Shown: positions 88 through 63,372 of the stretch, in pieces | How positions within the stretch are numbered: the first letter of the stretch is position 1 | How the letters are laid out: the number at the start of each line of letters is the position of its first letter | NCBI GenBank assembly: GCA_051294375.1 | Contig: CM119271.1 | Coordinates: 15,692,770-15,756,769 of the forward strand | DNA from: Paraspadella gotoi | Lineage: Eukaryota > Animalia > Chaetognatha | DNA: 64,000 nt | Reading direction: 5' to 3' | Made by a program: the position numbers and the translations under genes | The notes under the pieces: generated by a model | Told to the model about the DNA's origin: nothing | The model's input: only the letters and a program-made list of their open reading frames with translations | The model's database searches: none

Positions 88-1576
88 TCAATCGAAGAGA
101 GAGAATCCCATGTCTTCGTCGGATTCTTCCTCGCTCTCCTCCTTCTTCTCCTCCTTCGCTTCCTCTTTCTCTTCGGGGGCAGCGCCGCCGCCGCCGCCGG
201 CCGACGCGGCGCCGCTCGAGGTGGCGACTCCTGCGCGATGAGGCGTGAGTTATGATTAAGAAAGATCTTTGAATTCACAACAGGTCATTTTTAATTTTTA
301 ATTTATTAATAGATTCATTCATTCATACATCCATTCATCCCTCCCAACCTGCGCCGACGGAGGCCGCGGCCGAGCCGAGGGACCCGAGCAAAGCCCCGAC
401 GTCGACGCCGTCCAAGGCTTTGGCGAAGAGGGTCGGCCAGTAGGGCTCGACGCTCACCCCGGCCGCCTTCAAGAGGGTGTTGATCTTGTCCGCGGTGATG
501 GAGATTCCTGAAGAAAATAGAAGATGAACTGAAGCAGATTAATTTGTGGTTCGTTTCAAATGAGATTGAGTTCTTCAATCTCATTTACATATTGTAGCAG
601 TTTAGATCATTTCTCATATCTTTTGATACGGTTTTCATAGTAGTCTTATTTTACGGTTTTAATAGGTTTTAATAATGATTTAGTTTTCCAATTATTATTC
701 AAATATTTTATTGGAGAATTTACAAATGGATCTAAAAGTCTCGATGATAGTCCGTTATTAATTCCTGCTATTTGTTATGTTATATCATTTTCGGTGCTGT
801 CACTCTACCAATAATACTATACTCTCTGGATGGTACTGATTTGGTAATAAATAAAACATATTACTGAAAAAAAAAGGATTTCAGGGTCGGTCTGAACCAT
901 TATGCTTTTTTCTTAGCTTACCAATTATAATATGTTAATCATTATGCATCTCGTTTAAAACTATTAATGTTAAGTTAACAATACAATAAATAATGAAATT
1001 AACCACTACTGTATTACTTCTCTCGCTCAGTTAAGCTTATCAGATATTAATTCATAGACGTTATTAAGTATAAGAGCAAGAAGAACAATGCGAGTGTTCT
1101 ACTACTAACCATAAGGTCAACAATAATAATAATAATATAATCTATCTAATACTTAAGGGAGTGGTCTTTTCATATAATTGAAACATTCTTTAAAATATTT
1201 TCCACTTCATTGATAGGGAAGCCAGGTACTCTGGGAGTGAATAAACGGGACTGTGAGAGAGTCTTGATTAAAAGCTTGCAGGGACCTTCTTATGTAATTA
1301 TCTTGTAAGAGTGATGGAGGCCTTAAACCACCAAAGCCTGTCCAAAGTCAGGGGCAAGATAGCTTATTTATTAAATAAATGGATAATTTTTATATTGGTT
1401 GTACCAATTTCATAAGATACCCCCCCCCCGTTAGAGTGGTGCATCGTCCGGGAAAGAGTCGCTCTCATTAACAATAACCAATCATGCACAATTGCAATAT
1501 GCAAAATGCTAATCTCACCATCGTCGTGAAGGATGAGGGCGGCGTAGATGCAGGCCAGTTCGTCGTTGGACGCCAT
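88..1576 (-). CDS. RPLP1: 60S acidic ribosomal protein P1 (3 exons: 1576-1519, 507-349, 230-88)
   Basis: Spliced at GT-AG sites gives MASNDELACIYAALILHDDGISITADKINTLLKAAGVSVEPYWPTLFAKAL...EESDEDMGFSLFD*, with the P1 N-terminus and the conserved P-protein C-terminal motif. Confidence 0.97.
1150..1413 (+). mobile_element. Dispersed repeat family B (retroposon-like 3' end), copy in RPLP1 intron 1
   Basis: Shares gccaggtactctggga...aaagtcaggggcaagatagcttatttatt...ccaatttcataa with at least five other copies in the window; common 3' end with variable 5' truncation. Confidence 0.75.
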
Positions 1577-2399
1577 CTTTATTTAGACGATCGAGTTGTT
1601 TTATTTACTTTCAAAATTTTGTTTATTTAGTACAATTATGTTGTGCGAATCTCAGTGCAAGTCGGCAAGAACGCCCTTAGCTCCAGGGGGAGAACAAACA
1701 CCTTGAATACTAACAAGAGAGGAGAAAGAGTTAGTACTAAATTATGTAAAATTATTATTAATGTCATATATTATGTCAATCAAATAGTCAATGGGAAACT
1801 AAACTAGAATTTTTTAAAGGCCGATCGAATGATTTTTCAAACAGGAACTGGGGATTTACTTATAAAATACAATATAAAACAAAATTTATATAACAACGTA
1901 TCCAGTATTTTTGAGACCAAGCACTTGAGGTTTATTAAATTCGCAATATCAGAAGCCTCTACCCAGAACTGGCCTTATTGTGATGTTGTAAAAAATTTGG
2001 CACCAAGATTACGGATTAACATTAACAAAAAGGAGCAGCGGAATCGAAACATAAATAACAGCTAAACGAACTTATCGTCAATCCTTAAGCTAAACAGACG
2101 AACATTTAACAATTTTCTCACTATATCCAAGTATAAAAAAATAGTATCAAGCTAAAGAATTAAAAATCCAACAATAAAAATAGATTTTCCAAAAAAATAT
2201 GGTATGAGAGTTTTGAGCAAAAACAACAGAAATTGTTACCGCGTTTTTGGCAAGGGTGAATTATTAAACAGGCATTATATTTCCAACATGGAATAGTCAC
2301 CGATTAATTAATGCAGCATCAAGTTTAGAATCAAGTATAAAAAATATAGAGAATAAAAACTTTTAATAAACTTGCGATAAACTAAAATTGTTGTCAATC

Positions 2400-61432: not shown

Positions 61433-62527
61433 GGCTTCTCTCTGTCTCAGTCTATACAGTTTTTATCTTCTTCTTATCGTCTAAATATCTCTGTCTCTAA
61501 TTCTCCCGCTTCGTGGGTGAAAATCGTCTTTCCTGTCATTAAGGGTAAAGCGTCAACGAATGTTTGAAAATTATAAACTAACAGATCCTAAACAACGACG
61601 GAAAATAATTCCGCCAATTTGGTGTGGTTTTTTTGTGTGTGATTCGAAATGTCCGGACAATGTACATATTTTCGCTGGGTGTGAATATATCGGTTGGGTG
61701 ATGTACATTAATGTAAAATTAAGTAAAAGACGTAACCATTAATGCGTTTGCAACATGCAACTCGCATCATCACCTACAATTATATTATTTTCTTATTCAT
61801 AAAACTCGAAATGTTAAGTCTTTTTTAGCAAAATAAAAATACCGATAGGAAAAGAATATTACAATGTTCATAAAACGAACACACACCGACGTCAAACACA
61901 CAGAGCGAAAGAGATCAAAAGGCCGGATAAGTAAAGAGAATTAACTTCCTTCGTAAACTTAAAAACAACTAGGAGCGTCACTCCAAAAAACTTTTTACTC
62001 GACCCAGTTTCTGTTAACCGATTCCGTGCGCATTGCGTAATCATTTGTCATTATTCAAACCAACTAACAATATTAAACTCCATGCGGCTATTTTTCAGTC
62101 GCTAATAAATACATAAATTCATAGAGAAACAAACGAGATAGAAGAATAAACTCAAGTATGAGACGCAGGCAAGTGGGGGGGGAAAAAGATCAAAGTATTT
62201 TGTAGATTGGGTTTACTATTAAAACTTGGTCATGTTGGGAAATGAGATAAAATTATAAATATACAGATAAGATGATTATTGGATGTAGATAAAAAGATAT
62301 GTAGTACGTAGTTACCTAAAAGCGGATGAGTGAGCGAATAACATCAAATTAAATTCCTACATAATTCGTGTAATTTCCAACGTTTTAATTCCACAAAAAA
62401 AAGGAAACATTTCTAACAACAAAATTTGAAAACTATCTGTATCGAAATCTAAAAATAGATTTTTTTTGAGCGAAGGTCGAAATAAAAGTAAGTCTCTAGG
62501 AAAATGTTAAAGATCTCTCTCAGTTTC

Positions 62528-63372
62528 TCAGGCTTCGTAGTGCGTCTGAATCTTCTGCAGCAACGCGTCGCAGGTCTTCTTGGCGTCGCCTAGCAACATG
62601 CTGTTGTTGTTCTTGAAGAAGACGGGGTTGTCGACGGCCGCGTAGCCGACGCCGAGGGATCGCTTCATGACGATCGTCTGCGCCGCCTGCCAGACGCGGA
62701 GCACGGGCATTCCTTGATGGGGGAAGGGAGAGAAAAAGCTTAAATATGAAAAATACGTTCGAGATGTATCCTAATTACAATATTAATATACCGCAAATTA
62801 CGTATTTGTTACAACTGTTCTTCTCGTTGTTAAATTGTTATGTTTGTCAACGTTGGTTGAAACAGGGTTAATTCAAAATTAGATCCGATTTTCTTAATCT
62901 CCTTTGCATAAAGTAGCAGTACAGAAAATTATAATATTTTTAGATTGGGTAGGTTTAAATATGGTGATCTTAGGTTATGTCTCATTTAATGTAGTGTAAA
63001 GTATTGAGGTCTCGTTGCCAATTGGTTCATGTCGTTTAAGTAGATTATGTAATCATTTTCATCATAATCATTCCCTCCACTCACTAACCAGCAATGATGG
63101 AGTTGGGATCGTCCTCGGCCGCGGAGTTGACGGTGTCGTTGGCGCCGATAACGAGCACCAAGTCCGTCTTGGGGAAATCGTCGTTGATCTCGTCCATCTC
63201 CAGCACGTAGTCGTAAGGGACGCCCGCCTCCGCCAGCAAGACGTTCAATTGGCCTGGCATCCGTCCGGCGACCGGGTGGATCCCGAATCGCACGTTCTTC
63301 TTTCCTTTTTTGATGAGGAGGTCAACCATCTGGGCGATGGGATATTGGGCTTGGGCCACGCAGAGGCCATAC
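62528..63372 (-). CDS. NNT: NAD(P) transhydrogenase, last two exons (NADP-binding domain III); gene continues beyond the window
   Basis: [99 protein letters not shown]. Confidence 0.97.

Follow-up and report, generated by a model that had tools for sequence, protein, structure and literature searches.

The window analysed here is a stretch of 64,000 nucleotides (nt) from the chaetognath Paraspadella gotoi (assembly GCA_051294375.1, contig CM119271.1, forward-strand positions 15,692,770 to 15,756,769), within which all positions are counted, and its subject is an array of 17 genes lying in a single orientation. Open reading frames (ORFs) were scanned against Pfam at the curated cut-off, and exon models were required to keep an open frame with exact splice borders. 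In this way 17 genes spanning about 63 kb were modelled exon-exact (Table 1) and all 17 are on the minus strand, as the first-pass annotation had claimed. The 66 modelled introns, also on the minus strand, have a minimum length of 65 nt and a median of 233 nt; 63 have GT-AG borders and three have GC-AG borders (at 10901, 37161 and 15871). The window has a GC content of 43%, its exons being GC-rich and its introns AT-rich, and CpG is not depleted. Thirteen of the 17 genes reach the Pfam cut-off, PPP2R2 being fixed by homologs instead, and two (26677-28642 and 18789-19628) are called from gene structure alone.

Table 1. Features of the 64,000-nt window in the order of transcription of the array, followed by features in and around the spacers (aa, amino acids; E, expectation value; GC3, GC content at third codon positions).
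Feature	Position	Strand	Structure and evidence
NNT, transhydrogenase beta part	62528..63372	-	last two exons, 5' part beyond window; PNTB E 2e-48
UNC50	59586..61432	-	6 exons, 273 aa; UNC-50 Pfam
AREL1 HECT ligase	55786..58872	-	single coding exon, 1028 aa; HECT E 6e-72, homologs
PPP2R2 (PP2A B55)	51702..55056	-	6 exons, 481 aa; 76-88% identity to animal B55
CXXC-PHD-PHD-C2H2 chromatin protein	46479..49578	-	2 exons, 538 aa; PHD_4 and C2H2 matches below cut-off
RNF113A	43829..45913	-	4 exons, 364 aa; CCCH and RING
Piwi	33244..43632	-	14 exons, 1069 aa; PAZ and Piwi domains
SKA1	29307..30548	-	3 exons, 245 aa; SKA1 Pfam
Membrane protein	26677..28642	-	6 exons, 270 aa; open GT-AG model, GC3 0.73
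ADH class III and S-formylglutathione hydrolase (ESD), in-frame fusion	21458..26140	-	10 exons, 700 aa
TLC-domain protein (TLCD)	20294..21130	-	single exon, 278 aa; Pfam
Orphan ORF	18789..19628	-	2 exons, 179 aa; GC3 0.54; weakest of the 17
ELM2-SANT-zinc finger-SANT corepressor-like gene	13820..18356	-	ELM2, Myb Pfam
TADA3	9758..13550	-	4 exons, 474 aa; Ada3 Pfam
AP2M1	5672..8958	-	7 exons, 438 aa; Pfam; two introns seen in RNA
Nuclear receptor	2400..4540	-	3 exons, 602 aa; zf-C4, Hormone_recep; both introns in RNA
RPLP1	88..1576	-	3 exons, 119 aa; Pfam; both introns in RNA
U-tract AG, best trans-splice acceptor candidate	43707..43708	-	no donor, no upstream ATG
ATTAAA, then U-tract AG 26 nt on	21214..21240	-	AG 83 nt before TLCD ATG
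Stretch under one spliced RNA contig	1805..5537	-	record 2 of RNA run X1
Run of 736 N	30865..31600	.	between Piwi and SKA1
37-codon frame, E/K-rich end and stop, then T-rich sequence	31853..31966	+	beside N run

On the plus strand none of the 337 stop-to-stop ORFs (at least 45 aa) reached the curated Pfam cut-off, 11 of them scoring at E <= 0.01, and a codon-based scan of both strands outside the exons returned only repeats, low-complexity tracts and one foldback element. The array had been called unbroken, which holds to the extent that there is no plus-strand Pfam gene but is not provable across the N run at 30865-31600. The stop-to-ATG spacers measure 1095, 713, 729, 2123, 565 and 196 nt from NNT to Piwi, 2695, 664, 536, 327, 665 and 432 nt from Piwi to the ELM2-SANT gene, and 269, 799, 1131 and 823 nt from there to RPLP1. 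All 12 values listed in the first-pass annotation are exact and its count of four spacers above 1 kb is also right, as is its description of the spacers as U-rich on the coding strand (in 15 of the 16 the gene strand has more T than A). Its chance figure of 1 in 2^16 is correct per site (1.5e-5) but not per genome, as it ignores the genome-wide and scan-wide search, and the window was itself selected from a very large scan. Per 20,000 genes, runs of at least 17 are expected 0.15 times if orientation is random, 2.3 times if 60% of neighbours are on the same strand and 20 times if 70% are.

RNA run X1, in the form of contigs, was compared over positions 1-7200, which takes in two of the 16 junctions; the run also contains 0.67 of the words of 51700-59500. 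Six CT..AC joints (among 15 listed of 34) match modelled minus-strand introns of RPLP1, the nuclear receptor gene and AP2M1, and because they match, X1 is RNA and the minus strand is the right one. One spliced contig (5537-1805) begins 135 nt past the AP2M1 stop, runs unspliced and without a gap through what remains of the 1131-nt AP2M1-receptor spacer, and ends in the receptor 3' region, 229 nt before the RPLP1 ATG. Such a contig fits read-through or a precursor, and also overlapping untranslated regions (UTRs). The RPLP1 contig stops 12 nt within the coding region, short of the 5' end of the gene. In bin 1681-1920 the depth is that of the receptor contig's share alone (47.4) and no listed contig lies over the AG at 1710; such a hole in contigs is no proof and carries no weight here.

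Donors and acceptors in the spacers were scored with matrices built from the window's own introns. The first-pass annotation had pointed to five acceptor-like AGs upstream of start codons with no obvious donor (1710, 21214, 28863, 49655 and 55353); all five exist, but the claim of no donor fails for the one at 49655. The best candidate for a trans-splice acceptor is the AG at 43707, which follows the RNF113A stop by 122 nt and precedes the Piwi ATG by 74 nt, the best donor there scoring -4.4 bits, and no A(A/T)TAAA hexamer occurs between that stop and the AG. For the AG at 21214 there is no donor above the 2nd percentile, and from its sequence 21214-21240 is predicted to be a coincident polyadenylation (polyA) site and trans-splice acceptor. 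Candidate 3' splice sites without a donor lie before the starts of Piwi, TLCD and AREL1, in each case with a motif that is as frequent after stops. Predicted polyA signals precede the AG by 26, 94, 124, 215 and 226 nt at five junctions and by 345-712 nt at the others, and only the RNF113A-Piwi and ESD-TLCD junctions look truly operon-like. A 3-mer shuffle control (U-tract AG in 13/16 genes, p 0.003) was discarded, as the shuffle breaks T runs and because the after-stop control also gave 13/16. An Rfam search of the window returned no matches, and the 16-nt chaetognath leader motif has two matches in the window, each with two mismatches, which lie in AT-rich intron DNA and are not leader genes. 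Strong donors occur inside spacers at 50228 and 58966, and upstream of AREL1 a segment of 51 nt (58967-59017) has an acceptor-like AG on one side and a donor of 10 bits, a strong one, on the other, with no AG downstream before the first ATGs.

Operons in animals are generally regarded as short. In P. gotoi itself nearly half of the genes are trans-spliced and 18% are placed in operons on the basis of gaps of less than 250 bp; the longest operon comprises nine genes, and operons are depleted of genes for development (PMC12460157). The word 'strand' is absent from the main text of the same paper. The AGs at Piwi (43707) and TLCD (21214) resemble the RPS14-PCNA operon of Spadella cephaloptera, in which 3 nt lie between polyA site and acceptor (PMC2481426). 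Table S5 of that study, for the 158-kb bacterial artificial chromosome (BAC) 35A21, has 24 rows, 23 of them stranded (19 plus, 4 minus); all 14 named stranded host genes are plus over about 120 kb, the minus rows are transposons and gaps of 200-870 nt are common (PMC2481426), with the limits that the table covers only models with database matches and that the BAC was chosen for an operon. On orientation the study notes only that several other genes are co-oriented (PMC2481426). The window is like the chaetognath operons in its co-stranded unrelated housekeeping genes, its gaps of a few hundred nt and its predicted polyA site beside a putative acceptor, and unlike them (at most nine genes reported) in having 17 genes including a nuclear receptor, and in that the leader is only inferred here (PMC2481426, PMC12460157). 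Co-oriented unrelated genes are also found in tunicate and nematode operons, where they are resolved by a leader; the intercistronic medians for Ciona, Oikopleura and Caenorhabditis elegans, however, are 1, 31-57 and about 110 nt, with up to six to seven genes per operon in Ciona, whereas the spacers of this 17-gene window are mostly 300-1100 nt from stop to ATG (PMC7986045). The long co-oriented runs of unrelated genes in dinoflagellates and kinetoplastids are similar in this respect, half of the genes of Symbiodinium lying in unidirectional blocks of nine or more, but those blocks are genome-wide and in protists, whereas here one block is known, in an intron-rich animal (PMC8110479).

The arrangement is real; its mechanism belongs to a known kind, and it is the length that is unusual. 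We hold, with about even confidence, that the 17-gene block is a strand-biased chain that combines several short operons with single genes, with messages probably separated by spliced-leader (SL) trans-splicing, and the best reading is that it is not one 63-kb transcript. In this scheme, for which we infer both leader addition and the sites of transcription start, promoters in the longest spacers (2.1 and 2.7 kb) would start short polycistronic units. At the tight junctions (RNF113A-Piwi, ESD-TLCD and probably ELM2-TADA3) polymerase would read through the polyA site of the upstream gene, the 3' end of that gene would be cut and a leader would be spliced to the U-rich AG before the next start, and adjacent units sharing a strand would make up the block. 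The content of the array, mostly housekeeping and germline genes, is as in the P. gotoi operons (PMC12460157). The proposal of a very long operon or chain of operons in the first-pass annotation is therefore retained in part. A chain is plausible, given the donor-less U-tract acceptors with little or no promoter room at two junctions, the contig bridging a spacer and the presence of leaders and operons in chaetognaths, but a single very long operon is not shown, as no leader was seen, the motif is unspecific and there is room for promoters in the 2.1- and 2.7-kb spacers.

A number of observations weigh against operons here, and against a very long one in particular. Only one of the 16 spacers is shorter than 250 nt from stop to ATG. 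Among the ten spacers long enough to separate their two ends, a U-tract with AG occurs before the ATG in seven and after the stop in nine, that is, as often after stops as before starts, so the motif is not start-specific. The AG at 49655 has a donor at 50228 that scores at the 73rd percentile of real donors, and an ATG-free leader would result for only two of the five AGs first proposed (1710 and 21214), upstream ATGs being left at the other three, including 55353 and 28863. No common leader was found among 18 listed of 383 loose ends over 1-7200, in contigs, which drop such ends, and a contig across two genes does not prove a single transcript. The nuclear receptor is present although developmental genes are depleted in P. 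gotoi operons (PMC12460157). The block would work like a chain of leader-resolved operons; that it belongs to this class is not established.

Part of this evidence would suit monocistronic genes with their own promoters in a compact genome, the run being the selected tail of a mild strand bias and the AGs arising by chance or from cis-spliced 5' UTR introns. The run expectations given above, the lack of start specificity, the strong donors at 50228 and 58966 and a median spacer of about 690 nt, which gives some promoter room, are all consistent with this, but spacers of 196, 269 and 327 nt would then have to fit a 3' UTR, terminator, promoter and 5' UTR, the AGs at Piwi and TLCD are donor-less and Spadella has a second long same-strand run, and we consider such an arrangement unlikely. 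Similarly improbable, in our view, are genome-wide long directional clusters of the kinetoplastid kind, with few promoters and units of at least ten genes, each gene being resolved by a leader. Although all 16 neighbour pairs are co-stranded here, as are 13/13 among the named host genes of the 158-kb Spadella BAC, window and BAC were both chosen for co-orientation; the T-rich spacers (15/16) and the RNA over a 1.1-kb spacer would be in keeping with such clusters, as would the report that P. gotoi lacks domains like topologically associating domains and that its trans-spliced genes have few regulatory elements, but the same report puts the longest operon at nine genes and the operonic share at 18% under a 250-bp rule (PMC12460157), and the 2.1- and 2.7-kb spacers contain donors and polyA signals.

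A plus-strand gene, which the N run may conceal, would count both against directional clusters and against one very long operon. Judging from its sequence, the frame at 31853-31966 is possibly the terminal exon of such a gene, which would diverge from SKA1, converge with Piwi and split the array into two blocks of seven and ten genes, an arrangement compatible with any mechanism. An E/K-rich end followed by a stop, as in several genes of the window, the T-rich character (plus strand) of the next 300 nt and GA-rich sequence at the edge of the N run argue for such a gene, which we nevertheless regard as doubtful: the frame has no Pfam or PDB match, no adjoining acceptor scores above 0 and triplet tracts like its own are also found in introns. 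Even with it, 17 of 18 genes co-stranded would still give p 1.4e-4 per site. The short operons and single genes of a strand-biased block remain our preferred reading. A more far-reaching and rather speculative proposal, which we think somewhat unlikely, is that an animal phylum, probably the arrow worms, has chromosomes made of long one-way blocks, each with ten to dozens of genes unrelated to one another, with few promoters and leader-resolved messages; this would be a convergence on the kinetoplastid and dinoflagellate plan, and distance-based operon calls would have fragmented and hidden the blocks. If co-oriented runs of 14-17 genes were the rule in the lineage, much of the genome of an animal that has a nervous system and regulated development would operate on protist-like directional blocks, and a test would become possible of whether leader splicing makes promoters and terminators less necessary, so selecting against inversions; if the run is only the tail of a genome rich in operons, it is a good example but an ordinary one. 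Literature searches returned no report of unidirectional gene blocks in an animal; a planarian (Girardia) preprint reportedly describes strong strand bias, which a literature search did not confirm.

Several of the single genes deserve comment. The comparison sets for AREL1, B55 and the ADH-ESD fusion had no named chaetognath protein among the matches. AREL1 is about 45% identical alike to insects, molluscs, annelids and hemichordates and groups with one other protein only, a clade with insects being rejected (p-AU, approximately unbiased test, 0.004, in a set without crustacean AREL1), and B55 falls in a clade of its own with three sequences, apart from arthropods, vertebrates, nematodes and rotifers. 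A copepod or insect origin of the window was rejected by these two trees, again with no crustacean AREL1 in the set. ADH and ESD as two separate genes were also rejected, this being an in-frame fusion with full-length homologs, nine introns and an N-terminal extension. It has five relatives at 76-78% and forms one clade with copepod fusions (support 100), with the ciliate fusions outside. Because the fusion groups with copepod fusions while the other genes oppose an arthropod affinity, it is a candidate, on its sequence, for gene transfer from copepods to this lineage; arrow worms eat copepods. The overall picture, a long-branched bilaterian outside the insects with a copepod-type gene and undepleted CpG, accords best with Chaetognatha. 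The 5' ends of 17 of 80 metagenome fusion loci, none in the window's clade, have no shared leader; these fusions are at 54-72% to P0121 among the loci matched.

The CXXC-PHD-PHD-C2H2 model (46479-49578), which we take to be KDM2/FBXL19-like, contains neither a JmjC nor an F-box domain; treating the zinc-finger exon at 47081 as a gene of its own was rejected, as this exon completes a PHD. The membrane protein (26677-28642), presumably TMEM272-like, had no family match in Pfam and homology searches, and homology searches with the orphan ORF (18789-19628) gave no real homolog. The nuclear receptor (2400-4540) we assume to be ROR/HR3-like. In the ELM2-SANT gene the seventh exon carries its own stop at 15322, and three further 3' exons (14954-13820) are probably joined to the gene in frame by splicing (phase-0 donors of 7.3 and 8.6 bits, acceptor of 9.6 bits); these encode a beta-rich C-terminal domain, with no real match in homology searches, and are probably an alternative 3' end of the gene.

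Exon ends have been copied into introns by tandem repeats at 19227-19451 and 29698-29895. Two introns of Piwi contain foldback (inverted-repeat) elements, at 33864-34378 and, the larger, within a 4-kb intron at 38808-41559, and a perfect 13-bp hairpin at 43630-43659 (z -2.5, 3/200 shuffles) includes the Piwi start codon, where it possibly serves translational control. A dispersed repeat of about 250 nt is present in both orientations (1144-1415, 25605-25726, 27575-27631, 30579-30848 and 31687-31795) and is very deep in the RNA contigs (bins 961-1440).

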